Origin: Verrucomicrobiia bacterium
GTDB lineage: Bacteria > Verrucomicrobiota > Verrucomicrobiia > Limisphaerales > UBA11358
Assembly: GCA_036490295.1 (NCBI GenBank)
Contig: DASXED010000160.1
Location: forward strand, 1,343-65,342
Direction of reading: 5' to 3'
Length of the DNA: 64,000 bases
Position numbers and translations under genes: made by a program. Below, in pieces: positions 3,709 through 61,019 of this stretch (the stretch's first letter is position 1; every line of letters begins with the position of its first letter). The notes under the pieces were generated by a model, which searched no databases, had not been told where the DNA came from, and was given only the letters and a program-made list of their open reading frames with translations.

Positions 3709-3789
3709 CATTATTTTTGAAAGATTTCCACTTTTCGTCCGTGTTTCATCATGGAGCTTTAAGATTCCGAAACAACTTTGAATTGAAAA

Positions 3790-12672: not shown

Positions 12673-12723
12673 TTGAACGCCGGTTGTTTTTTTGTTTTCC
12701 CGCATTTTCAGGCATTTCAGAGG

Positions 12724-12739: not shown

Positions 12740-12826
12740 CAAAGGTTTCGCTGGTTTGATCTGACACTCCAAGGAGCGCGTCAGTTTGCAAAAAAAAGAG
12801 CAACTAAACATTTAACTGAAAAAATT

Positions 12827-13342: not shown

Positions 13343-13419
13343 CCCCGCGCGTTTGCAGCATGATGAATTTGAATTAAACAATCTCACCGGCGCTTGCAAC
13401 GGCGCCAGCATCCCCAAGA

Positions 13420-13449
13420 GCCGGATCTGCCTGTGATCCGGCTTTTTTA
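13420..13449 (+). terminator. Rho-independent terminator
   Basis: GCCGGATC-tgcctgt-GATCCGGC followed by TTTTTTA. Confidence 0.7.
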
Positions 13450-13534
13450 TTTGAATTGAAAAAATAATTTCCGCGCAAATTGCGACCGCATAAATTTTTC
13501 ATCTGGCATTCCATCTGCTGAAAATCGCTGCGAC

Positions 13535-42853: not shown

Positions 42854-42879
42854 AAGTTAATTTATGTTTTTTGGCTTTG

Positions 42880-44631: not shown

Positions 44632-46268
44632 GATTTTGCCGGACGATAATCGAAATAATCAAAATCCGCGACCGCGCGCGTTCCGCCGACATCCTGCACG
44701 CACAAACCGACCATTGCGCCGGTGAAATGCAAACCCGTGCCGTAGTCGTCGGATAATTTTGAAGCGTCCAAAATCGGCCCAGTGTTCTGCCAGTTTTTTC
44801 CATCGGGCGACGCGCCGAACTGGAGTTTTTGGAAATTTATTTCTGCGCGCAGAAAAATTTGCTTCCAGTCGTTGATGACAATCTCACTTTCGGAAAGCTC
44901 GTCGTAATTCCCATCGTCGGTCAGCACAATGCCAAGAATTTTACCTTTGGTTTCATCCTGCGTGACGCGCAGATAAAAATGCGTTCGCGTTTCATAATAA
45001 CAAATCAGCCCGGCCATTTGTGTAAAATGCATCGGTGAAAATTCCAAGCAAGTTTCGGCGGTGAATTGAAAATGCTGGACGCGCCGCGCGATCAGGCTTT
45101 GCTCGAAAAGCGAATGCAGCGAATCGTGTCCGCGCAAACGCAGCCAGCCGGGACGTTCTTTCAGCGACAGCCATGATTCGTCGGCGGGAATGCGCAGCGA
45201 ACTCCATTTCACATCCAGTTTTTCCGAATCGAAATGATCGCGCTCCGGCATGGCAGGCCATTTTGTTTCTGGCAAATCTTTCGGCGCGGGCAATTCCACT
45301 TGCGGTTTCGTCCCGCCATTCGCAAGTCGCAGCCAGCCATTTTTCCATTCGACGCGCTGCAAACACGTTTCGCGACCGAGCACGCAGCGATCGCCGGCGT
45401 GAGCATCCGCCGAAGCCGATTGGTCGGGCGAAGCCAGATTTTTTTTTGCGCCCGTTTTCAGCGGACGACTGGCGAGATGCACAAGATGCCATTCGCCGGC
45501 CTGCGTTTGAACAAGTTCGCCGTGACCAGCTTTTTGCAGCGGCAATTTGATGTCATCGCGTGAAGTAAGCACTGAGGGCTGTGGGTCAAGTTCATAAGGG
45601 CCGAGAATAGTTTTTGCCCGCGCCATTGAGATGCCGTGATTCCACCCCGTGCCACCTTCGGCTAACATCAAATAATAATTGCCCTCACGTTTGTAAAGAT
45701 TCGGGCCTTCTGTAAGGGCTTTTTTTGAAAGGATATTCGTCATTGGCCCCACAAGCTTCTGCGTTTTGTAATCATATTCCTGAATTACAATTCCGGCGAA
45801 ACGGTTTCGGCCTTTGCGAAAATCCCAAATCATGTTCAACAACCATTTCCGCCCGTCATCATCATGAAAAAGCGATGGATCGAAACCGATCGAATTGAGT
45901 TCAATCGGTTCCGACCACGGGCCAAGAATGTCCCGTGCGGTCGTCAAAAAAATTTTAATGTCTTTGAACGGCTTGCCCATCGCAAAGGTTCGGATATTTG
46001 TATAAATCAGCCAAAATTGTCCGTCGGCAAAACTTAATGACGTCGCCCAGACACCGGCGGAATCCACTACGCCGCGCAAGTCGAGCTGAGATTGTCGCGT
46101 GAGCGCGTGGCCGATGAACCGCCAGTTCATCAAATCGCGAGAGTGATGAATCGGCACGCCGGGAAACCACTCGAACGTCGAATTGGCGACATAGTAATCA
46201 TCACCGACGCGGCAGATGCTCGGGTCGGGGAAAAAGCCGGGAAGAATTGGATTTTGGATTTGAGACAT
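44628..46268 (-). CDS. GH43 beta-xylosidase/alpha-L-arabinofuranosidase with C-terminal beta-sandwich
   Basis: NPILPGFFPDPSICRVGDDYYVANSTFEWFPGVPIHHSRDLMNW is the canonical XynB-type N-terminus. The stop overlaps the symporter start (ATGA). Confidence 0.9.
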   Translation of the reverse strand: MSQIQNPILPGFFPDPSICRVGDDYYVANSTFEWFPGVPIHHSRDLMNWRFIGHALTRQSQLDLRGVVDSAGVWATSLSFADGQFWLIYTNIRTFAMGKPFKDIKIFLTTARDILGPWSEPIELNSIGFDPSLFHDDDGRKWLLNMIWDFRKGRNRFAGIVIQEYDYKTQKLVGPMTNILSKKALTEGPNLYKREGNYYLMLAEGGTGWNHGISMARAKTILGPYELDPQPSVLTSRDDIKLPLQKAGHGELVQTQAGEWHLVHLASRPLKTGAKKNLASPDQSASADAHAGDRCVLGRETCLQRVEWKNGWLRLANGGTKPQVELPAPKDLPETKWPAMPERDHFDSEKLDVKWSSLRIPADESWLSLKERPGWLRLRGHDSLHSLFEQSLIARRVQHFQFTAETCLEFSPMHFTQMAGLICYYETRTHFYLRVTQDETKGKILGIVLTDDGNYDELSESEIVINDWKQIFLRAEINFQKLQFGASPDGKNWQNTGPILDASKLSDDYGTGLHFTGAMVGLCVQDVGGTRAVADFDYFDYRPAKS

Positions 46269-46272
46269 GGCT

Positions 46273-46911
46273 TTAATCTATTTTCGCGGCCCATCGTAAG
46301 GCATTCAGCAATAAAGTTTGAAACATTGGATGCAGCCAGACCTCCACATTGTGGCCGGGAGTCAGCACACAAACACGCCCTTTGCCCTCGATCCGAGTCC
46401 AGCCAGCGGGCTGCACGCCATGTTCGGAACGCGATTGCAAAAAAATCTTGGCCCGCGCATCGTCCAGTTTCATAAAATAATGCTCGTCCTGAACCATGAA
46501 TGGCGTGACGCTTTTCGTCAGCGGACGCCGGGGCTTCGGCTCGATGGTCACCGGACATTGCGGCGGATGTCGTAAAAATGCCCCGCCAATCACGCCGCGC
46601 ATGACTGGCAATTCCGCATAATCGGCCGTTCCCGAATGGATCACGACCAATCCCGTGCCGCGCCGGATGTGATCGCAAAAAACTTTTTCGGAATCTTTGG
46701 TGAGCCACGCGCGTTTTTTTTTCGCCGAGACAACATTGGATTTGGCGAGGACAACCAATTGAAATTTTCTCCAGTCGAGCACCGGCCAATCCGCGTTGTT
46801 TTTCAAAAATTCAAAATCAAAGCCGCAATCGCCCAGCGCTTTTAATCCGCGCCGCGCGATTGCGCCGGGATGCCAAAGGTCATCGCATAGAACCAATGTT
46901 CGAATGTTCAT
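46273..46911 (-). CDS. ThuA-like (trehalose-utilisation domain) protein
   Basis: Class-I glutamine-amidotransferase-like fold pattern LVVIHSGTA...GG.F..HP......I.....HP.T......F...DE.Y... Confidence 0.7.
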   Translation of the reverse strand: MNIRTLVLCDDLWHPGAIARRGLKALGDCGFDFEFLKNNADWPVLDWRKFQLVVLAKSNVVSAKKKRAWLTKDSEKVFCDHIRRGTGLVVIHSGTADYAELPVMRGVIGGAFLRHPPQCPVTIEPKPRRPLTKSVTPFMVQDEHYFMKLDDARAKIFLQSRSEHGVQPAGWTRIEGKGRVCVLTPGHNVEVWLHPMFQTLLLNALRWAAKID

Positions 46912-47837
46912 TTTGATTCCACCTCCGGCAAAATCGGCTTCATCAAACCATCGCGCTCGTCATGCAATAAATCTGTATTCAATCCATCAAGCACCAGCAC
47001 GCCTTGCAGCGATGAAATCAATTTCGATTCGCTCCATTGCCAGACGATTTCGTCGCGCGGATTAAACTCCAGCAGTTGAATTCCTTTTGCGCCGTGGTTT
47101 TCACCGTGTCCCTGCCAATTCGCGAGCAAGATGTTTCCATTCGGCAGCAATTGAAACATCGCATAGAAAAATGGATTCACTTCCGGCGGAACGGATTCTT
47201 TGCCGCCGAATTTGCGAATGATTTTTCCGTTCGGATCAAGCTCAACCAAAAACGCGCCGTAGGCCGCCGAGATAATTAAATTTCCGTTCGGCAGTCGCAG
47301 TGATTTCCACGCGTGATAAAATCCATCCACTGAAAATTCGCGCAGATACTTTCCATCGCGCGAACCTTCGCGGATGCGGTCGTTGCACGACATGAGATAA
47401 GTCCCCTGTTCCGTCTGCCGGATGAGCCGCACATAATCGCCGGGAAAAATCGCACGATAAATTTCCTTGTCGCTTGCGTCTAATTCCAACACGGCAACAC
47501 CTTTTGCACCCGCAATGTCCACACCCGCGATGATCGTGTGACCGTCCGGCTGCCGTCGTGCCGCCGTCACGCCTTCGAGCGCCGCAAATTCTTTCACCAC
47601 GCGGCCCAGCGTCAGGTCAAACTCCGTGTAGCCGTGATGATGCCCGATGAGAATTTTATTTCCGCCGATCAATTGCATGTCGCGCGCCTGCGGCCGGCCG
47701 ATTGGCACGATCCAGTTTTTTGACTGGTCGGATTCATTTACGCGCAACAAGGTCGCGTGACCTTCGTCAATCGCGATGAATTCGTGTTGGATGGTCGCGC
47801 TCAAGAAATTTTGTTCCTCCGCTTCATGCAAAATCAA
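46908..47837 (-). CDS. Hypothetical beta-propeller-like protein
   Basis: Repeated beta-blade-like segments (LPNGNLIISAAYGAFLVELDPNGKIIRKF; LLPNGNILLANWQGHG). ATGA overlap with the ThuA gene. Function unknown. Confidence 0.6.
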   Translation of the reverse strand: MILHEAEEQNFLSATIQHEFIAIDEGHATLLRVNESDQSKNWIVPIGRPQARDMQLIGGNKILIGHHHGYTEFDLTLGRVVKEFAALEGVTAARRQPDGHTIIAGVDIAGAKGVAVLELDASDKEIYRAIFPGDYVRLIRQTEQGTYLMSCNDRIREGSRDGKYLREFSVDGFYHAWKSLRLPNGNLIISAAYGAFLVELDPNGKIIRKFGGKESVPPEVNPFFYAMFQLLPNGNILLANWQGHGENHGAKGIQLLEFNPRDEIVWQWSESKLISSLQGVLVLDGLNTDLLHDERDGLMKPILPEVESK

Positions 47838-47846
47838 GTCGAGCCG

Positions 47847-48833
47847 TCATTCCTTGCCCTTGTGCCAGTTGGCGCGCTGCCACTCGTGCTCGCGCAATTT
47901 TAAGTCCAGCGCGTCAGACAGCGGCAGTTGGTCGCTCACGCTGCAATTGAGTTGCGCCTGTCGCTCGTTGCGCATTCCGGGAATCACCGTGGAAACACTC
48001 TTTGGTTTCAATGCGAATTTCAGCGCTGCCGTCGCCACATCCGGTTCTGCTGAACCGATCGCCGCCTTGATTTTTTCCACGCGGCGCACCGTGCGTGCCA
48101 GCCGGTCGCCGCCGAAATAGTTACTGCGGAATTCACCTTCAGCGAATTTAGTCTGCTCGGTAAATTTGCCAGTCAACGCGCCCTCGTCAAAAACCACGCG
48201 CACGATCACGCCAACATTTTTCTCCAAGGCGACCGGCAAAAATTCCGCCGACGGCTCTTGTTCAAAAATATTGTAGATGACCTGCACCGCGTCGAGCCAG
48301 CCGCCGCGCATCAGATCAATCAGCGAATTTTGATCCTGCTCCGGCGTGCTGATGCCGATGCCGCGCAACTTGCCTTCCGTCTGCAACGCGCGCAGCGTTT
48401 CGAGCGCGGCCGGATTTCGATTCCACGCGCGCGTCCAGGTGTGAAGCTGCAACAGGTCAATACAATCGGTCTGGAGATTTTTCAGGCTGAATTCGATCCG
48501 TTCGCGCAAGTAAGCCTCGGGAAACCGATCCTGAATTTTTTCGTAAGCCGTCGGCGGCCAGTTGCCGGGCATGACCGGCGGAATTTTTGTGGCGACGTAA
48601 ATGCGTTCGCCTTTGCGCTCCTTCAACACGCGCCCGATAATTTGTTCGCTGTGGCCATCGCCGTAACCTTGCGCGGTGTCAATGAAGTTGCAGCCGAGAT
48701 CAAGTGCCTTGTGCAGCGTGCGAATGGACTCGTTATCGTCCTGCTGACCCCAAGCGCGCCCGCCGATGGCCCAGCCGCCAAAGCCGATCTCGGAAATTTT
48801 CCAATTCAAACGTCCAAATGTCCTGTATTTCAT
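47847..48833 (-). CDS. Aldo/keto reductase
   Basis: ISEIGFGGWAIGG..WG, LDLGCNFIDTAQGYGDGHSEQIIG, and the IPGMR motif near the C-terminus. Confidence 0.9.
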   Translation of the reverse strand: MKYRTFGRLNWKISEIGFGGWAIGGRAWGQQDDNESIRTLHKALDLGCNFIDTAQGYGDGHSEQIIGRVLKERKGERIYVATKIPPVMPGNWPPTAYEKIQDRFPEAYLRERIEFSLKNLQTDCIDLLQLHTWTRAWNRNPAALETLRALQTEGKLRGIGISTPEQDQNSLIDLMRGGWLDAVQVIYNIFEQEPSAEFLPVALEKNVGVIVRVVFDEGALTGKFTEQTKFAEGEFRSNYFGGDRLARTVRRVEKIKAAIGSAEPDVATAALKFALKPKSVSTVIPGMRNERQAQLNCSVSDQLPLSDALDLKLREHEWQRANWHKGKE

Positions 48834-48848
48834 TTTGAAATTCTTTCG

Positions 48849-51203
48849 TCAGTTATCGTGGTTGCCGAGCCAAAGCACCACCGTCGAGCGCGGCGAAACT
48901 TTCACTGGTGCGCTCAAATCAATCATTTTGCCCGAGACCAATTCGCGCGCCGTCTTGAAATTTTCCGGCGGCTTCAATTCAAACGTCTTGTCCGTCGTCA
49001 TGTTCATGCCGATCAAATAATTTCCATAACGCAGCGTGTAGAATTGTCCTTTGCCGGCAAACACGTTGTCATCCCCTGGACGAAAGCGCACGCCGTCGGG
49101 AATTTTTGCGATGGGAAGTTTTTCACCGGCTTCGGCAGAATGCAAATCGTCTGGATAATGAACGCCGCCCGGAGTCGCGCCGCCAATCGCGTCGCGCCGC
49201 GTGTAAAAAAGTCCGCTGGGTTCAAATTCCGTTTCCTGCCGCACGACGGCGATGCGTTCAAATTGCGGCGTGATGTAATGGACGCGCGCGAGAAAGTTGA
49301 TTGCCTTGTGCGCGCGCCAGTAAAGCGAAATATACAAAATGTCGTCGCCGTTTTTCAGCGCGACGACGCCGTCCTCCTCGTCGCTGAAAACAAAATCCGG
49401 CTGGCCGCGCGTCATCGGCAATCGCTTCGAGATTGGCGGTTGCGCTTTGACCAATTCATATTGATCCGGCACGCCGAGCAAACCGGCGGTGACGCGAAGA
49501 TTATTTGCCTGCGCCATCTGGCGTTCGAGCGAAATGAAAAACTGGTTGTCGTCAAACATCTGCTGCGCGTAGCCGATGGCATCCGGGTCGAGCGTGGCGG
49601 CGACGGCGTAAAGCGACGAGGCGTCCCAAGTGGAACGCTCGGCATACATGACGTTGCCGGGATAATGCGCGTCGCGCCAGCCGATGATCGTCTCGGCGCG
49701 CATGGCGCGAAAACCGTCCGCGTCCACAGCAGGATAACGGAACGGCGCGCGTGCGTTGGCGATTTGCTCCAGCCGCGCCTTGATTTTTTCGTCGCCGGGC
49801 AAGCCGGGCGCAGGCCGCGTCGCGTCGTATATCAAAGTCACCCAGTCCAAAACCTCGCCGTAATATCCGACGAAGCCCAGTTCCTTCGTCAAAGTTTTGC
49901 CGGTGAGTTCCCAATAATTTGTCCCGATGTTCCAACGGTGGCTGTCCGCTCCGGGATCGCTGTCGCGCCACGGCTCGAGGCTTAAGGCTTCGTAGAGATA
50001 ACGACGGACTTCGTTTTCGGAAAGCGCGCTCGCCGGATCAACCACTTCGAGTCCGCGATTGGACAGATAAATATTCATGTCCGTGATCATGGATTGGTTG
50101 GTGTAAAGCCGGCGGTTTTTCCGATGCCAGTCACGACCAGCAACAAGCATTTCGGAATACGCCGCGCGGCGAAGAATTTTTTTGCCGGCATCGTTAATCG
50201 GGTCATCCAGCAACGGTTTTAATTTTTCAGCCAATAACGAAATCGCGTCGCCAGCCGGACCGAATTCAAACCAGTCCGGATTCGGCGTGGTTGGATCGTG
50301 CTGCGCGAGTTCTGGATTTTCGCGCCATTGGGCAAACAGCGCGTCCAGTCCTTTCACAACTTGCGTGACGACATTTGAGTTTTGAAATGTCGGTGTCCAT
50401 TTCACAAAATACGCCTTCGCCAGAAATTCCATCTGCATTTCGTTGAGCGGCTTGGTAGAAGCGAGCAGATTTTTAATTTCGCCATTCACGCGCGCCTTGA
50501 GCTTGTCCATGACTTCCGCGCCCGGCTCTTTGCGGACGGGCGGATTTGTTGGAGCGTCACCTTGTTTTTCATTGGCGGGCGGAACAAAAAATCCGTTTGT
50601 GTGCGTGTAAAATTTGTAAATGCCGCGCGTTGGCAAATTCATCGGCTTTTGGAATTGATTAAAATTCTGGCCGTAACCCCAGACCGCACCAATGCTGCGG
50701 ATCTCAAAATGCAATTCCGTTTTACCTTTTGTCATTTCAATCGGCAGCGGAGAAGTGGAATAAAAAAAACGTCCGTTCAACGGTGGCTCGTTGCCGTCAT
50801 TCCCGAAATCCAGCAGATCAACGTCGCCAAGATGGATGTAGCCGACCTGCTTGCCTTCGCAAAAAAGAATCAGGCGTTCTGACGACCCATCCGAACCCCA
50901 AAGCCGGATCGTGGCGTAGTTGGGTTGCGCCGGATCAATTTTCAGCGTGAACGCCATGCTGCCGCCCTGCCAGCTTTCGGTTTGCAGCGGCAATAATTTT
51001 CGCGCCGATTCGTCCAGTCCGCCTTTGACGATCTCACTGGTCACACTCGAAAATGCGTGGTTCGTCTCCGAAGCAACGTCGCCAAACGTAATGGAATCAA
51101 TAATGGCGGGCGATTCTGCCACCAGTCCAATTGAAGCTAAATGCGTGGACAAAACGACCATCAAAAATCCGGTAAAAAAATGCGTGAGGAATTTCTGCTT
51201 CAT
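48849..51203 (-). CDS. Secreted hypothetical protein, 784 aa (candidate carbohydrate-active enzyme; no family recognised)
   Basis: Signal/anchor FFTGFLMVVLSTHLASIGLVA. Long, non-repetitive and tightly packed within the CAZyme array (15- and 19-nt gaps). Confidence 0.7.
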   Translation of the reverse strand: MKQKFLTHFFTGFLMVVLSTHLASIGLVAESPAIIDSITFGDVASETNHAFSSVTSEIVKGGLDESARKLLPLQTESWQGGSMAFTLKIDPAQPNYATIRLWGSDGSSERLILFCEGKQVGYIHLGDVDLLDFGNDGNEPPLNGRFFYSTSPLPIEMTKGKTELHFEIRSIGAVWGYGQNFNQFQKPMNLPTRGIYKFYTHTNGFFVPPANEKQGDAPTNPPVRKEPGAEVMDKLKARVNGEIKNLLASTKPLNEMQMEFLAKAYFVKWTPTFQNSNVVTQVVKGLDALFAQWRENPELAQHDPTTPNPDWFEFGPAGDAISLLAEKLKPLLDDPINDAGKKILRRAAYSEMLVAGRDWHRKNRRLYTNQSMITDMNIYLSNRGLEVVDPASALSENEVRRYLYEALSLEPWRDSDPGADSHRWNIGTNYWELTGKTLTKELGFVGYYGEVLDWVTLIYDATRPAPGLPGDEKIKARLEQIANARAPFRYPAVDADGFRAMRAETIIGWRDAHYPGNVMYAERSTWDASSLYAVAATLDPDAIGYAQQMFDDNQFFISLERQMAQANNLRVTAGLLGVPDQYELVKAQPPISKRLPMTRGQPDFVFSDEEDGVVALKNGDDILYISLYWRAHKAINFLARVHYITPQFERIAVVRQETEFEPSGLFYTRRDAIGGATPGGVHYPDDLHSAEAGEKLPIAKIPDGVRFRPGDDNVFAGKGQFYTLRYGNYLIGMNMTTDKTFELKPPENFKTARELVSGKMIDLSAPVKVSPRSTVVLWLGNHDN

Positions 51204-51222
51204 GGTATTGCGAACTTTAAAA

Positions 51223-52914
51223 TTATTTAGTGATGAAAAATTCCTGCACCACCGGCTCCGCCGATTTTAATTTCGGTTCAATTGTCCGGCCATATTGCCA
51301 AGCGACGACGGTGACTTTGACGGGAAATTTTGCGCGCGGCGGAATTTTTGTGAATTTCAAAACTTCGTCTCTGATTTCCGCCGGACCTTCGCGAACGTAA
51401 TAATAAACCGGAACGCCGGCATCAGAGGTCGCGTTCAACTTCACTGATTTCGTTCCAGCCTTTTGATCCGGAATTTTTGGGAACGTAATCTTTTGTTCCG
51501 CGCCTTCAGAAAGCCGGAACGGAATTTTCATCAACGCCTGTTCGACGGCACTTTTGTATTTTGCGTCGCCGGGATTTTTCGCCACCAGCCAGATGTCGCC
51601 CATGCGCCGGTCGAATGGCATGCTCAAGCGATTGAAGCGGATGGCAAACGTGTCAGGACTTAATTGCTCCACCGGGCCAGTGATCCGTGACAACCCGACT
51701 GGCACATCGTCCGGCGCATGGCCGATGGGCGTGCCGTTCGTCAAACCGGTCCAGGTCTGCGGATTGCCCGGCGGCACCATCTCGAGAAATGTTCCTTGCA
51801 GATGAAATGTTAGCGTCGCATCAAGCGGCGGAAATTTTAACCGCACCAGTTCAAATGCTTTTGGATCTATCGGAATCGTTTTTCCGTCCTGCACAAAGTC
51901 CGCAAGTTGCGGCAGTTTGCCGCGCTGGCGGGCGTAATATTTTTCCGTCGCCCGCGCCATTTCCTTGTCAAAGCACCAAAATGTTTCGGCGTGATTGCCG
52001 GTGTATTTGTCATACGGCGCGGCAGGCGCGGATGGCGGCTGATCGCGATGCCAACGATCAATCAACCAGCCATCATGCGGATCAATGAATTTTAATTTTA
52101 TCGGCTGGCCGAGCGGCGTATTTTTCGGCAGACGTTCTTCGGCGGCTTTGCGAAGGAATATTCCTAGAAAATCTACCAGTTCGTCGGAAGAATTAAAATG
52201 CCCGTTGCCAGCGTCGCACAAAAACGCCACGGGCGTCGCCGGATATTTTTCTTCAAAGACGAACGCGGGCGAGAGTCGCTTTTCCCACCACTCATACTCG
52301 CCCATGACCATCAGTCCGGGAATGCCGTTAATGTTTCTGTCGCCCCAGTTCACGTTCGGACGACCGTTGCCGACGAGATCGGTTTGCGGCGCGTCGCCGT
52401 GAACGGACAAAATCGCCAAAGTGCGTTGCGGATTCCACGCGGCGAAATTCCACGGAAAACTTGCCATCGCCGAATGGCCGATGGGAATGATCGGCGCGAA
52501 TGTCAGTTCTTCGTAACCGGATTCGTCGGCCAGAGATTTCAACAGCGCGTCGAATTTTTTATTCGTGCTGTCGTTGTTCGTCGTGTTCTGCCAGGTGTCG
52601 AATGTCGGCGCGATGAAAATTTCGGCGAAGCCGAGTTGCACGAGCGTTCTGCGAAAATCAGGATGCTGCAAAATTCCTTCTTCAAGCATATTGTTCTGAC
52701 CAACAACTATGCCGCGAACCTGCTTGCAATCCGGCGGAATCCACAAAAACGCGCGCGGATGTTCGCTGGAATTGGGCAGCGTGATGGAATCAACCGAAAC
52801 CGACCATTGATATTCCGCCGCCCTGACAGAAAACGTTCCGGCCAACAAAATGAAAATGAAGGCAAACGCGCCGTGATGCAGAAATATTTTCATCAATCGT
52901 GGAAAATTTTTCAT
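51223..52914 (-). CDS. Secreted hypothetical protein, 563 aa, possibly with an alpha/beta-hydrolase-like N-terminal half
   Basis: Start ATG 52914 overlaps the upstream stop (ATGA). Signal FAFIFILLAGTFSVRA. PIIPIGHSAMASF resembles a nucleophile elbow, but the last Gly is missing, so the esterase call is weak. Confidence 0.65.
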   Translation of the reverse strand: MKNFPRLMKIFLHHGAFAFIFILLAGTFSVRAAEYQWSVSVDSITLPNSSEHPRAFLWIPPDCKQVRGIVVGQNNMLEEGILQHPDFRRTLVQLGFAEIFIAPTFDTWQNTTNNDSTNKKFDALLKSLADESGYEELTFAPIIPIGHSAMASFPWNFAAWNPQRTLAILSVHGDAPQTDLVGNGRPNVNWGDRNINGIPGLMVMGEYEWWEKRLSPAFVFEEKYPATPVAFLCDAGNGHFNSSDELVDFLGIFLRKAAEERLPKNTPLGQPIKLKFIDPHDGWLIDRWHRDQPPSAPAAPYDKYTGNHAETFWCFDKEMARATEKYYARQRGKLPQLADFVQDGKTIPIDPKAFELVRLKFPPLDATLTFHLQGTFLEMVPPGNPQTWTGLTNGTPIGHAPDDVPVGLSRITGPVEQLSPDTFAIRFNRLSMPFDRRMGDIWLVAKNPGDAKYKSAVEQALMKIPFRLSEGAEQKITFPKIPDQKAGTKSVKLNATSDAGVPVYYYVREGPAEIRDEVLKFTKIPPRAKFPVKVTVVAWQYGRTIEPKLKSAEPVVQEFFITK

Positions 52915-55900
52915 GGTGAAACAATTGCCGCAGCTGCGCTGGATTCGCATCGCACAATCTGGCTGTCTTTTTCTTCCGTGATTTCGGCGCTGATATTTTT
53001 GTCGTCGCCGTCAAGATTCTTGATCGTGATTTCCTGCACGCGACCGTCGGCCAATTCGACGCGTAATTTGTCGGCGCTCAAAGCCACGGCGGATTTCACC
53101 ATCGGTTTATCCTCGTAAGGTTCAAGCACGGTCAGAAAACGCGCCTCGGTTCCCTGACTGCGAATGGCAAAAACTTTGCGCCGCTCGCTTTCGTTTCCAA
53201 ACGGATAATCGCCGCCGAGCGTGGCTTTGAAATGCACAGCTTTTTTGCCGGCGAGCAAAATGTGAATCGCCGCCGGATTCTTCTCGTTCAACGGCTGCGC
53301 GGGAATCGCATTCGTGACAAGCTCGCCGGCGATTTTGATCGGGCCGCCATAATAATCCTCGCCGGATTTTGCAGGAGCTTCAATGTTTTCAACTGTTGGC
53401 TGAACATCCAGCGGCAATTCTTTTCCATCGGCAGTGACTAATCGCGCGTTGGCAAGAAAGAGCGCTTTCCGTTTTCCGCCGTCGACGGTGAGTTTGATCG
53501 CAAGCTCTTTCGCATTCGCAACCGGCACATCAAGGTTCACCGCGCCCAAAATCCAGACGCCGCTTTCCCCTTGCGCGAGAATTTTTCCGTCGGCGCTGAC
53601 TTCGTATTTGACCCATTGTTCATTGCCCAATTCTTCCGGCGGCTGTGCAAGCATGATTTCCTGTTGCGTTGGCCAGAGCGAATGAACATCCATTTTCAAG
53701 ACGCCGGGTTCATTGTGCTGATTTTCCTCACCGCGACCATTTTGGATTAGAAATTTTGCTACCGCCGGCGCGCCGGCCTGATACCAATCGCAGCCGGTGA
53801 TGAATTGCGCAGAACTGCGCGGGTCGGAATTAAATTGCGCGTCGTGATGGAGGAATTTTTTGTCCATCGCTTCGAGTCCTTGAAATCCTTTCATCTGAAA
53901 AAGATTGTCGAAGGTGTGCATCTGTTGGCCTTTCAAATAATCGGCAATGACGATGTAATCATCCGTCACGATTCCAAGCCGCCGCTGCAAAATGCGGTCG
54001 CTGAACGGTCCGAGTTCGCCCCATTTTCGGTCAGTCACCAGCGGAAAGCTCTGGCGATTTCGTTTCATCATCGCCGGCAAATCCGCCGACGCGCCGCCGC
54101 TGGATTGTGCGTCATAAACCATGCCGCCATAAGGCGGATCGGACCAGCGCGCGTCGGTTTCCTGCGCGGAGACCTGCATCATTTTACCGGAATAAAAAAG
54201 CAGTTGCGACGACGGCACGGCTTCCTGCTGTTTTTGATCCACGACGACCATGTTGTGCGCGACGGAATTCTGGACGAAAAATTTATACATGAAATTTCCG
54301 TAGCCCCACCAGATGCTTTCTGGATTCCAAAAACTATGCCCGTAACGCGAAATCGAATCCAGCGACGCGCGATCAAAGTGTCCGTGAAATCCGCCTTGTG
54401 TTCCGATTTTGAAAACAGCTTGAATTTGCTCGCGCGGCGGACGATTTGTTGTTTGCGAACGCAACAGCGCGAAGCCGAGATTTTCCGCAACGCCGCTTTG
54501 CAAATACGGCTTGTTGACCGCCTCCGGCAAATCCGGCACGCCGTAAATCAAATCGCGTTGCCCGCTGGCTTTGATCAGCGGGACATAGGCTGGATCGCGA
54601 AACGCATAATAGGCGAGTTCCATTCGCGAGCCGCCGATTTGTTCTTCATGCCCGTCGTTCATGCCGAACGCGACGCCGCGATAATCGGCGACACTCGGCA
54701 CGGCGTCCCAAAGTTGTTTGATCGAGCGCGTGTTGCGATGGTTCGGCCCCCATTTTTCAAACGAGATGCCGTAAGGCGGATTTAACGCCCACGGCGCAAT
54801 GATCGTGTCCGGCGAAAAATTCGCCGGAAATTCCCGGTGCAACAAATCAATGCCCCACGGCTTGCACGCCAACGCCGATTGCGTCAGTTCGGAGGCGACC
54901 CAAAAATTGTAACTGGTCGAACCTTCCCACCACCAGCCGTCGTCCATGATTCCTTTGGTAACATAATCTTCAAAACCGCACGGGCCGTAAAGATAACGAT
55001 TCGCCGCCGACAAATCTCCCATCGCGAGTGAACAAAACAATGCCGCAGTGTCCGCCGCGACATTCCAATTGCCGATGTTCCCCACGTCCAAAATTGTTTC
55101 GACCGTTTGCAAATAAAGCCGGAACGTGTGCTCGATGGAATCGCGATCCGCCGTGCTCAAAACATTTGCGTCGAGAATTTCGTCGTAGGCGATGGCGATG
55201 ATCTGCCAGTTCTCACCTTCCTGCGGTTCGCCTTCGCTCACGGCGGCGAATGTCGAAGGATAACCGGTTTTTTCGTCGGCGAGACGGCGCAAAAATAGCG
55301 CGACCTTTTCGGCGTAATTGGTGTTGCGCGTCAATTGCCACGCGCTGGCGGTCTGCGAAAGTTTTTTGAATTCCGTCACCCAAAAAACATACGGATGTCC
55401 CTGCGGATCGCGCGCGCGCTGTTCCGGCGTCGCCACTTCCGGCACTTGCCACGACTCGGCGGCATCCACAAATTCCTGCTGGCGGGTTTTCGCCCAATCA
55501 TATTTTGCGACCTTGTCGCGCACTTTGTCCCAGCCTTGCGCCGTGAGCAAAATGCCCGGACGCGAAAGGTCTCGCGCCGTGATAAATTTTAATTTGGCCG
55601 GAGAAATTCCATTGGCCGTTGCGAGCAACGTCTGCGTTTCGTGTCCGCCCCGCGCAATGCCATTTTTTGGCAACGAAACTGAAACCACGCAGTTTTTTGT
55701 TTCGCCCGGAGACAAAGTTAATCGCGCAGGCTCGACTGAAGCCATCATCGTTTCCCAACCATATTTTTTAAAATTGAGAATTATATTTTGCGGTGCGTCG
55801 CTGCAATTGCCGACGGTCACTATGTAAGTCGCCGTTCCACCAATCGCCGTGGATTTTCCTTTCACCGGCGCGTCGAGGAAAATGACCGGCGCGCGAACCA

Positions 55901-56459
55901 GCCGGAGGTCTTTCAATTTTATTTCGCCGCTTTTGCCATCGGCAAATTTTCCGGCCAGTTCCAATTTTTGGATGAATTCCAGAAATGCGCTCCGGCTTTG
56001 GTCGAAATCAAATGTCGTCCACGGCAACGTCACGGATTGCCATTCGCCGTTGCCAGTCACAGAACAACTTGCACGACTGGCGGAAATATATTCCTGTCGC
56101 GGCTCTTCCGGCGGTGTGGCAATGGTCGCCTGCAATTTCAATGTGCGTCCGCGCGGCGCAAGAATTTTTATTTGCAAACCGTAAAAGCCGCGCCAGTCGT
56201 GCGTGCTGTCATTCTCCTGTCGAAAGCCAAAAAAATACCAGCCCTTCGTCCCCCGCGGATATTCAAAAACAGCTTTGTTTTCCAAATTCCAAGTCGCCAC
56301 GCCGTTGGCGGATTTCAAATTATTCCATCCAGAAAAATCTTTTCCGCCAATTTCAAGCCACGGCGAAATTCCCGTTTCCGACTGCGCGACAGCAGAAATC
56401 GCCGCCAGACACAAAATGGCGAATTGAGTTGCGCGGAAAAAATGCAAAAGGTGTTTCAT
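52911..56459 (-). CDS. Secreted heparinase II/III-like polysaccharide lyase, 1182 aa
   Basis: Start moved to ATG 56459 (signal MKHLLHFFRATQFAILCLAAISAVAQS), overlapping the upstream stop (TGATG). The track start at 56717 lies inside the upstream gene. Heparinase II/III C-terminal motif GGFHGHFDRASLDSISRYGHSFW...AHNMVVVD. Confidence 0.75.
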   Translation of the reverse strand: MKHLLHFFRATQFAILCLAAISAVAQSETGISPWLEIGGKDFSGWNNLKSANGVATWNLENKAVFEYPRGTKGWYFFGFRQENDSTHDWRGFYGLQIKILAPRGRTLKLQATIATPPEEPRQEYISASRASCSVTGNGEWQSVTLPWTTFDFDQSRSAFLEFIQKLELAGKFADGKSGEIKLKDLRLVRAPVIFLDAPVKGKSTAIGGTATYIVTVGNCSDAPQNIILNFKKYGWETMMASVEPARLTLSPGETKNCVVSVSLPKNGIARGGHETQTLLATANGISPAKLKFITARDLSRPGILLTAQGWDKVRDKVAKYDWAKTRQQEFVDAAESWQVPEVATPEQRARDPQGHPYVFWVTEFKKLSQTASAWQLTRNTNYAEKVALFLRRLADEKTGYPSTFAAVSEGEPQEGENWQIIAIAYDEILDANVLSTADRDSIEHTFRLYLQTVETILDVGNIGNWNVAADTAALFCSLAMGDLSAANRYLYGPCGFEDYVTKGIMDDGWWWEGSTSYNFWVASELTQSALACKPWGIDLLHREFPANFSPDTIIAPWALNPPYGISFEKWGPNHRNTRSIKQLWDAVPSVADYRGVAFGMNDGHEEQIGGSRMELAYYAFRDPAYVPLIKASGQRDLIYGVPDLPEAVNKPYLQSGVAENLGFALLRSQTTNRPPREQIQAVFKIGTQGGFHGHFDRASLDSISRYGHSFWNPESIWWGYGNFMYKFFVQNSVAHNMVVVDQKQQEAVPSSQLLFYSGKMMQVSAQETDARWSDPPYGGMVYDAQSSGGASADLPAMMKRNRQSFPLVTDRKWGELGPFSDRILQRRLGIVTDDYIVIADYLKGQQMHTFDNLFQMKGFQGLEAMDKKFLHHDAQFNSDPRSSAQFITGCDWYQAGAPAVAKFLIQNGRGEENQHNEPGVLKMDVHSLWPTQQEIMLAQPPEELGNEQWVKYEVSADGKILAQGESGVWILGAVNLDVPVANAKELAIKLTVDGGKRKALFLANARLVTADGKELPLDVQPTVENIEAPAKSGEDYYGGPIKIAGELVTNAIPAQPLNEKNPAAIHILLAGKKAVHFKATLGGDYPFGNESERRKVFAIRSQGTEARFLTVLEPYEDKPMVKSAVALSADKLRVELADGRVQEITIKNLDGDDKNISAEITEEKDSQIVRCESSAAAAIVSP

Positions 56460-58852
56460 CACGAAATGGAAATGCTTTGCGGCAGTTGCAGTGGACGAAA
56501 ATGCCACGCTTTGACGCGCGTATTTTTTGGCGCATCGTCGGCGTCGGCAAAATTCTTTTTGCCGGTGAATTGGTCGGGGCTGATGACGTGATGGTCGCCC
56601 GCGAAATAATGATGCGGGCCAAAATAATTGAATCCATTTGGAATCAATTCCAATTGCAGCGTGTGAATTCCCTTTTTGATTTTCGCGGCGATTTTCCAGT
56701 CCGGTCCCCAAACCCAACCCAAGTCCGCGCCGTCCAACGTCACGCGCGCGGCGTCGGCTCTGATTTCGTCAAGCTGAATGAAATTGGTCGCACGCGCGGT
56801 TTTGAAAACGGTTTCCGCAATCAACGGCGAATTTAAAAACGGAAAACCGGCTTGAACCAAATCACCGTCAATTCTTCCATCCAGCGGCGCGAGAAAAAAG
56901 GGGCCGCGCGTCGCAATTGTTCCATTTTGTCCGGCTGTGAATTTTGCGCGGCTGAACACGCGAAATTTTCCGCGCAGCCAGACGAACGGCGACGTTACAT
57001 TTTCTACGCAGTGAAAATGAAGTTTGTTGATGGATTTGATTGGCAATTGTCCCAAACGGCCGATCGTTCCATTTTTGCTTCGGGATAAATGCACAGAATT
57101 GCCGTTGAACGTGAATTCGGTGATTGCATCCGCAAAAAAAACTTCGAGCGGCTTGCCAGCGGAAAATTTCGTTGCGCATGAAAATTCGCAGGTAAACCAG
57201 CCGTCCAATTCGCGTTTCGGCTCCAGCAAAAGCGCGTTGACGCAACCGGGCAACAGCGACCATTTCACAACTACAGATACTATAGTCGCAGGCGTCTGAA
57301 TTATTTTTGTTTCACGCGGCTGGATTTGAATTTCTTCCGTGAATCGCGTTCTGGTTTGTTCCAACAGATGAAGACCTTTTTCATTCAATCGCGCGCCGTC
57401 GGCCACAATAACGTTTTTATAGACACAATTCCCGATCCGCAAACCTTGGCCGTCTTGAACGCCATGGGCTTCAAGCGTCCGTTCGTCGGTGAGATGATAG
57501 GGCATTCCTGCATCATAAAGTTCCTGCACTTGTTCGAGGAAGCGACGATTTAGTTTCCCTGTAAAGCTGTCGGGATAGGTGGTGGCGTTGTGGACGTTTG
57601 TTTGCAAAAATTCCCGTGGTTCGTAATGCGCCATGATGCCGCGAAACGGTGCAATGACCAGCGTGTCGGCGGGCGGCGGCGGATTTTTCTGCAATTCCTC
57701 ACGCACGCGTCGCAGCAATTCGGAATACGCCGCCGACCAATTCAAATGCAGCGGCTGTGACGGCGGCCAATCGCGAATGGCGGCGCTGGTCAATTGATAC
57801 TGGCTCAAGTGCAAAACAAAATCCGTGAGTCCATGACGTCCGAGCCACAGAAGATAACGTTCCAAATCCTCCGGCGTCGCACCCCAGCCTGCCCCGCCGA
57901 ACGCCTCGACCATGCAATGGGCATCGCCGAATTGCTGCGCGCTCGATGAGGCTTGGCGCGGATAAAAATGGTTCGACGGAAAACGTTCCAGCGCGTCAAT
58001 GCCCGGCAGCGAGAGGTTGCGGAAAAATTGGGAGCACGAGCCGGAAGTCGGGACTTGAAACAGCGGATGCTCCTCGCCTTTGACGTGCGCGGTGAAAAGT
58101 TTGCCGTGGCGTTTGCACCAGTCGTTGATCGGCGCGGTGAACGATTCGTTGAAAATGTCCGTCAGCAGTTCCCAAAATTGAACCCGCGTTTCTTCAAAAT
58201 TATCGCCGGAGAAAAATAATTTTGGAATCAGCGGCAGCAAATCCTCGCCGTGACGCTGGCGGAAAAGTTCCGGCAAATTCGGCGTCCACGGAATCGCGCC
58301 GTGCTTTGAAAGTGAATTATAAGCGTGACCGAGGCCGAATTCAGGTTCGTCGCAAAAAATAGTTTCAACGTGCTGCCACGCTTCGGGCGCGAGTCCGGTG
58401 CGATAGCGTTCGTGCGTGAGTTCGAGAAAATGCCGCGTCAAATCTGGATTAAAATAATCCACGCCCGCGCCGATGCGTTCGGCAAGAAACCATTTTATCC
58501 CGTCATGTTCAAATTCACAAAGACAGCGCTCCGGTTTTTCCGTCACGAGTTCCGCCCGGCGTTGCGCGTCGTTTGGAAACTTTTTCAATAATTGCCCGCC
58601 AACCGTTCCGCTCGGCCAGCCGTCCTCGTCGTAAATCCAAAACGCGAGACCGATGGATTTTGCGTGGAGAATTGCATCGGAAACTTGTTTCAAATAATCA
58701 TCGCTCAAATAAGGCGGATCATTCGGATAAAAACGCGGATGAAAAACCACGCCGTCGAGTCCAACGGCCTTGAATTGATCCAGTTGCCGGCGCAAACGGC
58801 TTTGATCGAGCGCGCCGTTGATGGCCCAGAATGTGTAAAAAAGTGGAGTCAT
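56459..58852 (-). CDS. Cytoplasmic putative glycoside hydrolase, 797 aa (TIM-barrel N-terminus plus beta-sandwich domains; family not assignable by eye)
   Basis: FWAINGALDQSRLRRQLDQFKAVGLDGVVFHPRFYP...IGLAFWIYDEDGWPSG resembles the N-terminal barrel of several large GH families. It is the first gene of the 15-gene array. Confidence 0.7.
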   Translation of the reverse strand: MTPLFYTFWAINGALDQSRLRRQLDQFKAVGLDGVVFHPRFYPNDPPYLSDDYLKQVSDAILHAKSIGLAFWIYDEDGWPSGTVGGQLLKKFPNDAQRRAELVTEKPERCLCEFEHDGIKWFLAERIGAGVDYFNPDLTRHFLELTHERYRTGLAPEAWQHVETIFCDEPEFGLGHAYNSLSKHGAIPWTPNLPELFRQRHGEDLLPLIPKLFFSGDNFEETRVQFWELLTDIFNESFTAPINDWCKRHGKLFTAHVKGEEHPLFQVPTSGSCSQFFRNLSLPGIDALERFPSNHFYPRQASSSAQQFGDAHCMVEAFGGAGWGATPEDLERYLLWLGRHGLTDFVLHLSQYQLTSAAIRDWPPSQPLHLNWSAAYSELLRRVREELQKNPPPPADTLVIAPFRGIMAHYEPREFLQTNVHNATTYPDSFTGKLNRRFLEQVQELYDAGMPYHLTDERTLEAHGVQDGQGLRIGNCVYKNVIVADGARLNEKGLHLLEQTRTRFTEEIQIQPRETKIIQTPATIVSVVVKWSLLPGCVNALLLEPKRELDGWFTCEFSCATKFSAGKPLEVFFADAITEFTFNGNSVHLSRSKNGTIGRLGQLPIKSINKLHFHCVENVTSPFVWLRGKFRVFSRAKFTAGQNGTIATRGPFFLAPLDGRIDGDLVQAGFPFLNSPLIAETVFKTARATNFIQLDEIRADAARVTLDGADLGWVWGPDWKIAAKIKKGIHTLQLELIPNGFNYFGPHHYFAGDHHVISPDQFTGKKNFADADDAPKNTRVKAWHFRPLQLPQSISIS

Positions 58853-59095
58853 TTTTGATAACCGTGCAGGCTGATTTTAGAGGCGGGTTGATGAAGCCGC
58901 TAGATTCTAATTTGATTTTATTCGGACGGGCATCGCCCGGCGAACGCTTTTCCCCCGGTGTTCGCGGACTTCCAAATTTTTCCCTGATTGGAGGTAGGGT
59001 TTCACCCCATATCCAAAAAAGCGAACTCAATGGATATTGGCATGAATTACAGTCGCCATCGAAGCCAAACATTGCGCTGAATTCGCCATACTGAC

Positions 59096-59665
59096 ATGAA
59101 AAAAAAATCAACCGCGCTGTCACAACGATATATGGCGGCGTTGGGAAAACATTTGAAGCAAGGCCCGCAGGCGAGTTTGCAGCCGGCGCTGGGGCTTGGC
59201 CGCGAGGCGGCCGCCCTTGGGCTGAAAACTTTGGAACTGGCGCGGATTCACGATCAGGCGCTCGCCACGCTGGAATTATCGAAAATTAAAAACGGGTTCA
59301 CAAAGCTTGCCGGGATTTTTTTTGCCGAGGCCAACACCCCGATTGAGGAAACCCATCGCGCCGCGCGGCGGGACAATGTCCACCTGGTCCGGTTGAAGGA
59401 AAAATTGGGGCAGCGCACGGAGGAACTGGCCGTCTCCAACCGCCAGTTGCAACGCGGCATCGCCCGGCGCAAGGTCATGGAGGACGCCTTCGAGAAAACC
59501 GGGCGGCACCACAACAAATGCCTGGAGGAATCGCTTCGGTTGCAAAAACGCCTGCGGCTGCTGACGCACCGGGTCATGGCGGCGCAGGAGGATGTCCTCG
59601 CTCTGGCTCAAGCCAACCATGCGCGCGACGAGCGCGGTCGCCGACGCCAGATGATCCGGCGTTAA
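59096..59665 (+). pseudogene. 5' fragment of a sensor histidine kinase gene (RsbU_N-like N-terminal domain plus coiled coil), truncated just before the HisKA_3 phospho-acceptor helix
   Basis: LSQRYMAALGKHLKQGPQASLQPALGLGREAAALGLKTLELARIHDQAL is the RsbU N-terminal-domain pattern. NRQLQRGIARRKVMEDAFEK...LRLLTHRVMAAQED is the linker that normally continues ...AQEEERKRISRELHDE. Here it continues VLALAQANHARDERGRRRQMIRR, which is the antisense of the neighbouring fragment. Confidence 0.55.
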
Positions 59666-60619
59666 CGGCAGTCCCTTCGTATCAAGGTAATTGATGGTGA
59701 TGTCGCCGTCCGGTTGAATCACAATCGGCTTGGCGTCCGGCTCGACCGTCTGCGTGTAGATGCCGTATGAAAGCCCTTCCTCGATGATGACGGTGTAGGC
59801 GTAATAATTTTCCGTCTGCGAAAGCAGGTCGCAAATCGTCACGGACTTGCCCGTTCCGCTCATGCCAATCAAAACCGCGTGTTGCGGGGATTGATTGCCA
59901 GCGGAGCCGGAGAAAGTTTTGATGCCGACAAGATTTTGGTTCGGGCCTTCGTAAATCGCCTCGGCTGAATCAAGGTGGCCGGTGAACGTAGAGGCAATCG
60001 GCAGCATATCGGCGATGTAGCGGTTTTCGCCGTAAAGTTTCCGCGAGTTGTATCTGCTCCACGTCCAACCCGGCCATGTCTGGAAAAATAATTTTTTGGA
60101 AGTGCTGGGCAGCGTGCTTTCCGCATACTGCGCGGAATTCATCGAATTGATGGCGTTCTTGATGGCGGTCGTTTTGGCAATCAGCCCTTCCTTGCTTTTG
60201 TCCCAAGTCCGAATTGCAAACAAGACTTTGAACGGAATCGTATGCCCCTGCATCAGCGCGGCGATTTTCTTTTGCTTTTTGTCCATTACGGTCAGGAGCG
60301 AAAGCTTTTTCTCGCTGGCATAATCGCCGGCAATGCGGTCGTGTTCCTTTTCCTCCTTATTGATTTCCTTGCGGACGGAAAGCGGGTCGAGATTCACCGT
60401 GATGGTGTAGTCGAGCAACCGCAAGCTGGTGAGCCGATGGATGATTCCTGGGTAAGTCATCTTCGGCCAGCGCGACAAGGCGATGATGGAATGGTAACGG
60501 CCATCCATGAAGAAACCGAAATCAGCTTGTCCAGCGCCCTCGCTGTGCCAGCAATTTTCCTGAACGGAAAGTTGCGGATCAAAACCCTCAATCGGGTCGT
60601 AGTCGAACCGTTCGGCCAA
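59593..60619 (-). pseudogene. Internal fragment of a VirB4/TrbE/TraC-family conjugative type IV secretion ATPase
   Basis: Walker A HAVLIGMSGTGKSVTICDLL followed by VIIEEGLSYGIYTQTV..PIVIQPDGDITINYLD matches the family pattern D.G.SY......gg..i.......NP. The region upstream of the P-loop is collinear with the VirB4 middle region. The first ~200 aa and the whole Walker B/C-terminal half are absent. The ORF-track extension 59276..59592 is antisense read-through of the kinase fragment. Confidence 0.55.
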
Positions 60620-61019
60620 GGGATGATCCTCGACTTGAGTGGCGTGGAAGTCGTGCCCGAAGAAATCAAGCCGGTTGCCAGCAGCAGTCCGGCCAGACCT
60701 GTCTTTGAAACAGCCGTTTCAACGGTATTGTTGCCGGTTCGTATTGGGTTGGATGTCCTTTTCGGCGGTCAAAACACCTGTGTCGCTCCTCCGACGTATG
60801 TTGCGAACGCCGCTCCGAGTCCAACTTACTACGTTAATTCTTGGCCGTCAGTTCCGGCAAATCAATCGCGGAATTATTACTACGGGAATGTGCAGCCCAG
60901 CTATTACGCGCGGCCTGTTTATCAAGTTCACTACATCGCTCAACCGATTTTTCATCAATCTCCCGTTTGCCGCTACCGTTGAACCCATAAAAACAACAAT
61001 TCATCTCAAACCTATCTTT

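Follow-up and report, generated by a model that had tools for sequence, protein, structure and literature searches.

How did the stump of one gene, an inverted internal piece of a second and the tail end of a third come to lie end to end on a bacterial chromosome? The question is raised by a short region of a 64,000-nucleotide stretch of Verrucomicrobiia bacterium DNA (NCBI GenBank assembly GCA_036490295.1, contig DASXED010000160.1, positions 1,343 to 65,342 of the forward strand; hereafter ‘the window’, numbered from its first letter), in which an earlier note, made from the letters alone, had described the truncated front of a sensor histidine kinase gene meeting, head-on, an internal fragment of a VirB4/TraC-type conjugation ATPase gene, and had taken the meeting point for the edge of a degraded integrative conjugative element (ICE). 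The two open reading frames (ORFs) behind that description are found at 59096-59665 on the plus strand (189 aa) and at 59276-60619 on the minus strand (447 aa), and the suggestion of a recombination scar involving conjugative-element DNA stands; the identity of the first gene and the idea of an element’s edge do not. What the locus contains is a series of four parts: codons 1-166 of a gene here termed gene A (plus strand), an inverted stretch of the ATPase gene (codons ~193-534), the final 120 codons of a third gene, gene B (plus strand), and a gene for a fibronectin-III (FN3)/Big_1 surface protein (plus strand). The explanation that is tentatively preferred here is a recent illegitimate-recombination scar in a chromosome of the Verrucomicrobiae (Limisphaerales-like, from soil), in which a deletion was patched with captured conjugative-element DNA. 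The genome data examined are those of this one 64-kb window, and the DNA compared with it comprises a set of loci (L-numbers) and the contigs of three metagenome runs (X1, X2 and X3); homologue proteins carry P-numbers.

The left-hand piece, the gene A stump (59096 to 59593, plus strand), encodes the first 166 residues of a protein with an RsbU_N-like domain, a coiled-coil linker and a HisKA_3 helix that is 232 aa long when intact: 165 of these 166 residues are identical to those of the intact homologue P0121, and the similarity stops at ...RVMAAQED. At the level of DNA, window positions 58270-59594 correspond to positions 1-1325 of locus L001 with 98.9% identity, the match ending exactly at 59594. 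The cut falls, as had been proposed, just before the HisKA_3 helix, the match to the P0121 family ending at codon 166; the 66 residues that are lost amount to the whole DHp (HisKA_3) domain, and a HisKA_3 domain with its conserved His is absent from the window copy because the stump ends before it. Within what is left, the match to RsbU_N is weak (aa 10-62, E=8e-4, below the Pfam cutoff). Beyond residue 166 the 189-aa ORF resembles none of the 232-aa family's members, either in the homolog search or in an alignment of the family (alignment A1); an end-to-end alignment of its product to a family of short proteins was sought, and the match covers only residues 1-166 of 232. The remainder of the ORF (59594 to 59665, plus strand; 23 codons and a stop) is antisense of the ATPase fragment and is not native coding sequence.

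The middle piece is the orphan ATPase fragment (59595 to 60618, minus strand; 1,025 bp including the shared bases at its left end), which holds 342 codons of a VirB4/TraC/TrbE-like ATPase. Residues 1-342 of the 447-aa minus-strand ORF match such proteins, with similarity ending at ...ARMVGLSQSED (nucleotide ~59594); the identities are 88% to P0002 (aa 86-432 of 763), 83% to P0003 (from aa 193) and 75% to P0007. Homologs cover ~78% of the ORF and their alignments stop at residue ~342-347, while residues 343-447, which were checked for a family match over the whole length of the ORF, match nothing in homolog searches: these 105 codons (59276 to 59593, minus strand) are antisense of gene A rather than ATPase sequence. 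Both ORFs are thus inflated by antisense read-through in the way the earlier note had held, by 23 codons in the plus-strand and 105 in the minus-strand frame. At the level of DNA, window positions 59593-60618 correspond to L005 positions 11124-10098 with 94.5% identity. The fragment represents codons ~193-534 of a protein whose length is at least ~870 aa and, as proposed, is an internal piece that retains the Walker A motif but from which the ~192 N-terminal aa and the C-terminal half (331 aa or more) are missing; no other piece of an ATPase of this kind occurs in the 64-kb window when it is searched by tblastn with 12 homologs and with all ORFs of L005 and L002. Two distant homologs appeared to extend the homology past 60618, to 60655 and 60694, which would have suggested a mosaic, and this was rejected: the extension consists only of H..H and P-LA coincidences, and the DNA match to L005 stops at 60618.

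The assignment to the VirB4 superfamily rests on the centre of the profile. The match to TIGR00929 (VirB4_CagE) covers profile positions 239-531 of 792 (E=9e-10), and the window copy does not reach curated cutoffs, with 37.3 bits against a cutoff of 643 for TIGR00929 and 25.5 against 567 for TIGR02746; its longer relatives, of which the full-length ones reach TIGR00929 profile position ~729, score 48-91 bits and likewise fall below the cutoffs of 567-643. Matches to the Pfam P-loop families are sub-threshold and centred on aa 244-300 of the 447-aa ORF. The Walker A motif, GMSGTGKS (59843 to 59866, minus strand; residues 252-259 of the ORF), fits the form GMSG[AT]GKS found in the relatives. The closest annotated relatives are ‘hypothetical proteins’ on plasmids of Opitutaceae TAV5 and Termitidicoccus (31-34% identity), followed by alphaproteobacterial TrbE proteins (22-24%); the ATPase belongs to a very divergent, Verrucomicrobia-specific VirB4/TrbE lineage. 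What the fragment shares with known VirB4/TraC/TrbE ATPases (TIGR00929, TIGR02746; Pfam P-loop_TraG, TraC_F_IV) is the central part of the profile and the Walker A motif; it differs from them in that only 342 internal codons remain of a complete architecture of ~800+ aa, the Walker B half being missing, and in that it lies outside any type IV secretion system (T4SS) gene cluster, whereas the donor-type copy of L005 lies inside one. As encoded, the window copy cannot be a working ATPase. Its 342 codons are nonetheless open, with no stop and no frameshift, and carry 0 changes at 59 near-invariant sites of the family (rank 27 of 46). Some other members of the family differ: P0042, P0049 and P0052, on other contigs, have 11-19 substitutions at near-invariant positions, and many of the homologs found on long contigs fall well short of full length. 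Pseudogenes of this ATPase in decay seem to be widespread in soil and peat Verrucomicrobia.

The right-hand piece, the gene B stump (60620 to 60982, plus strand), consists of the last 120 codons and the stop of a gene whose intact product, P0244, has 561 aa, the first ~439 codons being missing in the window; an exhaustive representative search with the 120-aa peptide matched P0244 residues 440-561 at 92% (E=9e-65). An ORF of 246 aa at 60242-60982 (plus strand) is partly antisense of the ATPase and partly gene B. In locus L038, which encodes P0244, the order is two small ORFs, gene B and then the gene of an FN3-repeat protein; L038 positions 2259-3775 correspond to window positions 60614-62123 with 91.8% identity, and the first 2.26 kb of L038 are absent from the window. 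The intact protein has N-terminal hydrophobic segments, a region rich in Ala, Glu and Lys, and a tail rich in Tyr, Pro and Asn. Judged by eye, the hydrophobic segments are likely to be membrane-spanning, and the Ala/Glu/Lys-rich region is probably a coiled coil; no Pfam domain is found in the protein.

At the left junction (59593 to 59594) the two parental homologies overlap by only 2 bp, a TG common to the L001-type target and the L005-type donor. The claim that two unrelated fragments meet at about this point, within some 10 bp, is therefore borne out at 59592-59594 and tightened. Over 12 nucleotides to either side, 8 of 24 in-register positions match (p=0.24), which is not above chance. At the right junction (60618 to 60619), where the ATPase fragment meets gene B, the donor match ends at 60618 and the match to gene B, in L038 and in an X2 contig, begins at ~60618-60623; an imperfect 5-bp patch, GG[C/T]CA, is present here, and 11 of 24 positions match in register (p~0.03, a post hoc value). 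No significant direct or inverted repeats, target-site duplications or att-like repeats were found at the junctions. Such joints carry the signature of illegitimate recombination or end-joining, and not of site-specific integration, transposition or homologous exchange. G+C content rises locally to 0.61 at 59200-59800, from ~0.50-0.52 to the left and right; the peak covers the 3' portion of the gene A stump and the end of the ATPase fragment that adjoins it, and comes from the make-up of these gene pieces rather than marking a feature of its own.

Both joints are real DNA and not an assembly chimera. The evidence comes from Logan contigs, an independent assembly in which rare variants are dropped. 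In X1, a soil metagenome that holds 94% of the sampled words, a contig of 2,173 nt spans 58600-59720, and with it the left junction, with 0 mismatches, and one of 613 nt spans 60434-61046, and with it the right junction, also with 0 mismatches. The left junction is found again in a different sample, X3, on a 151-nt contig that spans 59528-59678 with 0 mismatches at a coverage of ~2.8x. Depth is even across the junction: the zero-mismatch X1 contigs that tile the ATPase piece have depths of 5-9, and the flanks 8.2 on the left and ~5 on the right. Since the depth of the fragment is about that of its flanks, X1 holds no second identical copy of the ATPase segment. No loose end that would mark an alternative allele at 59594 was found in X1, and no reciprocal junctions were found in runs X1-X3. 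X2, for its part, carries both unrearranged parental configurations. One of its contigs leaves the window match at 59594 and continues with AGCGCAAAAACATCAGCCGCGAACTGCAGG, the intact HisKA_3 helix; contigs of the ATPase gene run on across the breakpoint; and a loose end at 60623 translates as ...TRVEGIDGQ and then GMILDLSG, identical to P0244. The 30-mer at this last loose end has no match in L001-L007 or in the window, and is explained by P0244 and L038.

What, then, was gene A before it was cut? The truncated gene had been read as that of a sensor histidine kinase, a view that its relatives do not support: their intact products have 232 aa, lack HATPase_c and, at the phospho-acceptor position, carry Gln in place of His in 79 of 87 cases. 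The statistics of the family rest on the best 120 matches, 82 of which are exactly 232 aa long; among the motifs that could be read in these matches the phospho-acceptor is Gln in the 79 just given, His in 7 and Glu in 1 of 87, and the H-box is SRELQDE in 9/11 members of alignment A1. According to precomputed Pfam assignments, the relatives carry HisKA_3 (PF07730), with or without RsbU_N (PF08673), and HATPase_c was not found anywhere in the 232-aa family. In L001 the intact gene A (827-1525) is followed by the gene of a 387-aa paralog, which has both SRELHD and HATPase_c and is 41-44% identical to the 232-aa protein in the shared part, and then by a NarL-type response regulator. A comparison with syntenic loci, as the earlier note had suggested, shows the gene to be whole in L001 and of full length (228-232 aa) in 29/29 loci from species-representative metagenome-assembled genomes (MAGs) of Verrucomicrobiae/Limisphaerales (L008-L036); what is whole there, however, is a 232-aa non-kinase, the true kinase of 387 aa being the next gene. 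A kinase lies immediately downstream of gene A in ~27/29 of the MAG loci, and a regulator is present in 26/29. Gene A, the kinase and the regulator make up a conserved unit of three genes, gene A being the first.

The intact relatives of gene A therefore resemble HisKA_3-type (NarL-class, DegS/LiaS-like) kinases in having an RsbU_N-like domain, a coiled-coil linker and a HisKA_3 helix, and in sharing the kinase/NarL-regulator operon setting with a 387-aa HisKA_3 kinase; they differ from such sensor kinases in being only 232 aa long, without HATPase_c and mostly with Gln for His, and the window copy differs further in having lost the entire HisKA_3 domain. By its motifs and domain content the 232-aa family is best described as a kinase-like accessory protein and not as a kinase, and it has the look of a conserved pseudo-kinase that partners or modulates the kinase next to it; we know of no described equivalent of this family of HisKA_3 proteins without the His. 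No sequence of L001 lying 3' of position 1325, where the kinase and regulator genes are found, occurs in the 64-kb window, and the two-component kinase/regulator pair is gone from this locus.

The ATPase piece, on its side, can be placed in an element family. In L005 the ATPase gene has a ClpB-like AAA_2 gene on its 5' side and genes for DUF4141, CagX (VirB9-like) and TrbI (VirB10-like) proteins on its 3' side. The full-length L005 ATPase gene (9520-12708) is itself split over several frames, with products of 155, 248, 273 and 406 aa, which may be due to long-read indel error or to a genuine frameshift. L002, L003 and L004 (~10001-13651) hold an independent remnant of the family, in which the ATPase is cut after residue ~493 and is extended by read-through to an ORF of 573 aa; a 91-aa ORF follows, and then a 481-aa tyrosine integrase that abuts tRNA-Pro(GGG) and the housekeeping genes yicC and gmk. 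The truncated ATPase lies 0.3 kb from that integrase, and the same structure is present in at least 3 assemblies. In L037 the element’s ClpB-like gene is reduced to a 52-aa piece, 95% identical to the L005 copy, that lies 10 kb from an integrase abutting tRNA-Cys. These arrangements indicate an element family that is common in the lineage, that integrates, to judge from the loci compared, beside tRNA genes, and that is often eroded by deletion.

Little of this is to be seen in the window. A tblastn search with all ORFs of L005 and L002 found no gene of either element other than the fragment at 59.6-60.6 kb; the L002 ORFs, its integrase included, gave no integrase match. No relaxase, coupling protein or second T4SS gene appeared among the L005/L002 ORF matches, and Pfam matches in window positions 40010-58852, the part covered by the Pfam scan of the neighbours, were metabolic or lacking. 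The nearest tRNA is at 16.6 kb of the window, so that none lies within ~40 kb of the junction, and no tRNA is found in L001 (11.5 kb) or in L038; Rfam families are absent from 56-64 kb. The breakpoint is not, as had been proposed, the edge of a degraded ICE: a second sharp junction, to gene B at 60618/60619, lies 1,025 bp away, and no other element gene is present in the window. The donor family does share, in L002 and L037, the tyrosine integrase/tRNA layout and the decay by deletion that characterise degraded ICE remnants beside tRNA genes; the window differs from such remnants in having no integrase, nearby tRNA, att repeat, relaxase or second T4SS gene, in holding only 1,025 bp of a single gene, and in the truncated host genes that bound this fragment on both sides.

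Taken together, these observations may be accommodated by the following history. The DNA from gene A codon 166 to gene B codon ~440 would have been lost, including the DHp domain and the kinase/regulator pair, and the broken ends would have been bridged by the 1,025-bp inverted internal piece of a VirB4/TraC-like ATPase gene. This could have been a single event, or two closely timed ones, in which end-joining that used almost no homology repaired a break or deletion and took in the fragment as filler, from an incoming, degraded or resident element. Both stumps lie on the same strand, which is what a simple deletion between genes of like orientation would give. Quite possibly, though with less assurance than the scar itself can be claimed, the ATPase piece is filler from a cut-up conjugative element, perhaps from an aborted transfer, that was captured by homology-independent end-joining during the repair of a multi-kb deletion. 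We infer that one chromosome formerly joined the two flanks, that the piece came in as filler and is not a leftover, and that a repair pathway of this kind was at work; whether that was Ku/LigD non-homologous end-joining, alternative end-joining or a replication-linked process cannot be told from sequence. The rearrangement is young, because the fragment is undecayed and the left flank is ~1% divergent from intact L001, and the same two facts leave room for few events.

The strongest competitor assumes that the element was once integrated between the gene A operon and gene B, and that two outward deletions, both starting inside the ATPase gene, left only its middle 1 kb in place. This history, which extends the earlier note’s idea of a degraded ICE to both sides, is a serious possibility, nearly as likely as capture. 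Remnants of the same family are common, and they show just this kind of erosion: in L002-L004 the ATPase is cut at aa ~493 near the integrase, in L037 only the 52-aa ClpB-like piece is retained, short ATPase ORFs on long contigs are numerous, and P0042, P0049 and P0052 are visibly decayed. Junctions of the end-joining type would fit deletions equally well, and a homolog of a domain of the neighbouring FN3 protein lies inside the L037 element remnant. On the other side, at least three events (an integration and two large deletions) would have to be fitted within ~1% divergence from L001, and yet the fragment is undecayed. The integrases of the family adjoin tRNA genes in L002 and L037, and no tRNA is found within 10 kb downstream in the intact left locus or in L038, which argues against canonical integration at this site; both deletions would, besides, need to have removed the attachment-site tRNA gene together with flanking host genes, and no other element DNA is left in the window. 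Capture is slightly favoured over such two-sided decay in place, because it demands fewer events in a short time, and because the fragment is undecayed, other element DNA is lacking and a tRNA context is absent from the intact flanks.

Several points weigh against capture, and they should be set beside this preference. That the gene A and gene B loci were neighbours in the ancestor is a presumption: in 0/29 related genomes does gene B or the FN3 gene lie within 10 kb of the three-gene unit, and L001 is too short to reach that far. The right junction is seen in X1 only, from Logan contigs that drop rare variants. The element family does decay by deletion in this lineage (L002-L004, L037), which makes a two-deletion origin nearly as likely, and the position of P0242, a homolog of the FN3 protein’s N-terminal domain, inside the L037 element remnant hints that the right flank of the window may itself be mobile-element cargo. 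The capture of ~1 kb of filler at bacterial deletion junctions is rarely documented. Finally, the closest precedent, SPDIR (short-patch double illegitimate recombination), involves much smaller patches with stable microhomologies, which are not seen at the joints of the window.

That precedent is part of a wider experimental record. Microhomology-mediated deletions in bacteria have been shown experimentally, with microhomologies of 3-12 bp at the endpoints of spontaneous deletions (PMC6614815), and ectopic or plasmid-derived DNA has been found inserted into bacterial chromosomes at illegitimate joints (bioRxiv 10.1101/2024.07.02.601687; 10.1101/2023.11.22.568220). Plasmid DNA is an experimentally demonstrated source of templates for SPDIR, which generates microindels and needs the hybridisation stability of (extended) microhomologies (bioRxiv 10.1101/2024.07.02.601687). 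The window locus is like SPDIR in its two illegitimate joints with little or no homology and in the replacement of chromosomal sequence by mobile-element DNA; it is unlike SPDIR in a patch of ~1 kb, in a multi-kilobase loss, and in a similarity at the left joint that does not exceed chance. SPDIR as the mechanism was considered and is set aside on account of the 1,025-bp patch and the lack of stabilising microhomology (8/24 at the left joint, p=0.24; 11/24 at the right, p~0.03).

A rearrangement without loss is unlikely. Under this explanation an inversion, a translocation or a large mosaic island would have split genes A and B, and the missing halves and the kinase/regulator pair would lie elsewhere in the genome, perhaps beside the other parts of the ATPase gene. 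In its favour, the view afforded here is that of one 64-kb window, on a contig that ends ~1.7 kb past it, and the two stumps run in the opposite direction to the ATPase piece. A single inversion or insertion, however, cannot give two junctions 1 kb apart in one gene with three partners; the depth of the fragment contigs in X1, close to that of the flanks, leaves no room for a second copy of the ATPase segment, and reciprocal junctions are lacking in the runs examined.

It is still less probable that the joints are an assembly or amplification chimera, present in no cell. The contig is metagenome-derived, the region lies near its end, and many related ATPase variants in the sample fragment the assembly graph, all of which would favour an artefact; against it stand the independent contigs that cross both junctions in X1, and the left one in X3, with 0 mismatches, the even depth across the junction, and an overlap of the parental sequences that, at 2 bp, is far too short for a misjoin in a k-mer graph.

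Least credible of all is a functional new gene, in which the truncated gene A product or the ATPase fragment would be expressed and have taken on a regulatory or dominant-negative function. In its favour, the native start of gene A, the region upstream of it and 166 intact codons are preserved, and the allele is the sole one detected in the X1 population. Against it, the locus no longer has the kinase and regulator that are gene A’s partners, 29/29 relatives keep a full-length gene A, and the ATPase ORF lacks its N-terminal domain, everything past the neighbourhood of Walker A, and a native start: its TTG arises at the right junction, where the donor has CTG and gene B’s side supplies the first base, and no promoter-like site is found upstream.

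The surroundings of the scar are unremarkable on the left. Directly 5' of gene A, in the undisturbed left flank, lies an ORF of 87 aa (58831 to 59094, plus strand) with 100% amino-acid identity to the L001 ORF at 562-825 and with weaker homologs similarly placed in L009 and L012. The left-hand 20 kb are ordinary carbohydrate-utilisation chromosome, with genes for GH43, sodium:solute symporter (SSF), ThuA, aldo-keto reductase, heparinase-like and, weakly, GH106-like proteins, together with large proteins without Pfam matches. Among the latter are three consecutive ORFs at 48849-56717 (minus strand), of 784, 575 and 1,268 aa, with no Pfam match at E<=0.001.

To the right, the FN3/Big_1 surface-protein gene (61020 to 64000, plus strand), the intact downstream neighbour of gene B, runs off the end of the window, its frame being open to 63998. 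The large secreted or surface protein it encodes has a signal-peptide-like N-terminus, an N-terminal domain of ~115 aa, ~5 tandem FN3-like repeats of ~95 aa (70-76% identical at the level of DNA), a Big_1/invasin-like domain (with matches to fn3, Big_1 and Invasin_D3) and, at the C-terminus, a long stretch without domains. That the contig stops shortly past the window is probably due to the repeats. A scan of metagenomes of the Joint Genome Institute (JGI) with its N-terminus, made to find an empty site of the right flank, gave relatives at 68% and 43% only, and a protein search two moderate matches. A 164-aa stand-alone homolog of the N-terminal domain (P0242; 56-58%) is encoded at L037 8001-8495, between the 52-aa ClpB-like relic and the tRNA-Cys-adjacent tyrosine integrase, and near genes for LexA and an ImuB-DnaE2 fusion and a GIY-YIG gene.

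The scar is an ordinary and known kind of genome damage, of which this is only a new example, and its practical value lies mainly in annotation. All three pieces, from gene A, the ATPase gene and gene B, are non-functional pseudogenes, and the ORFs of 189, 447 and 246 aa are read-through artefacts that should be annotated as pseudogene fragments and not as a kinase, an ATPase and a hypothetical protein; nor are these three ORFs evidence for a conjugation system or an ICE in the genome. As for the organism itself, a two-component pair that at least 26 of the 29 related species under comparison have kept has been lost from this strain. If filler capture is the true history, it would be a natural and population-fixed case of the capture of a foreign fragment on the kilobase scale in an uncultured Verrucomicrobiae lineage, and an internal fragment of a mobile-element gene that lies by itself would not have to mark a former integration site, which bears on methods that take orphan fragments of hallmark genes as signs of past ICE or prophage insertions. 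Conjugative DNA would, in that event, be able to leave ‘fossil’ fragments in chromosomes away from the attachment sites to which integrases direct it.

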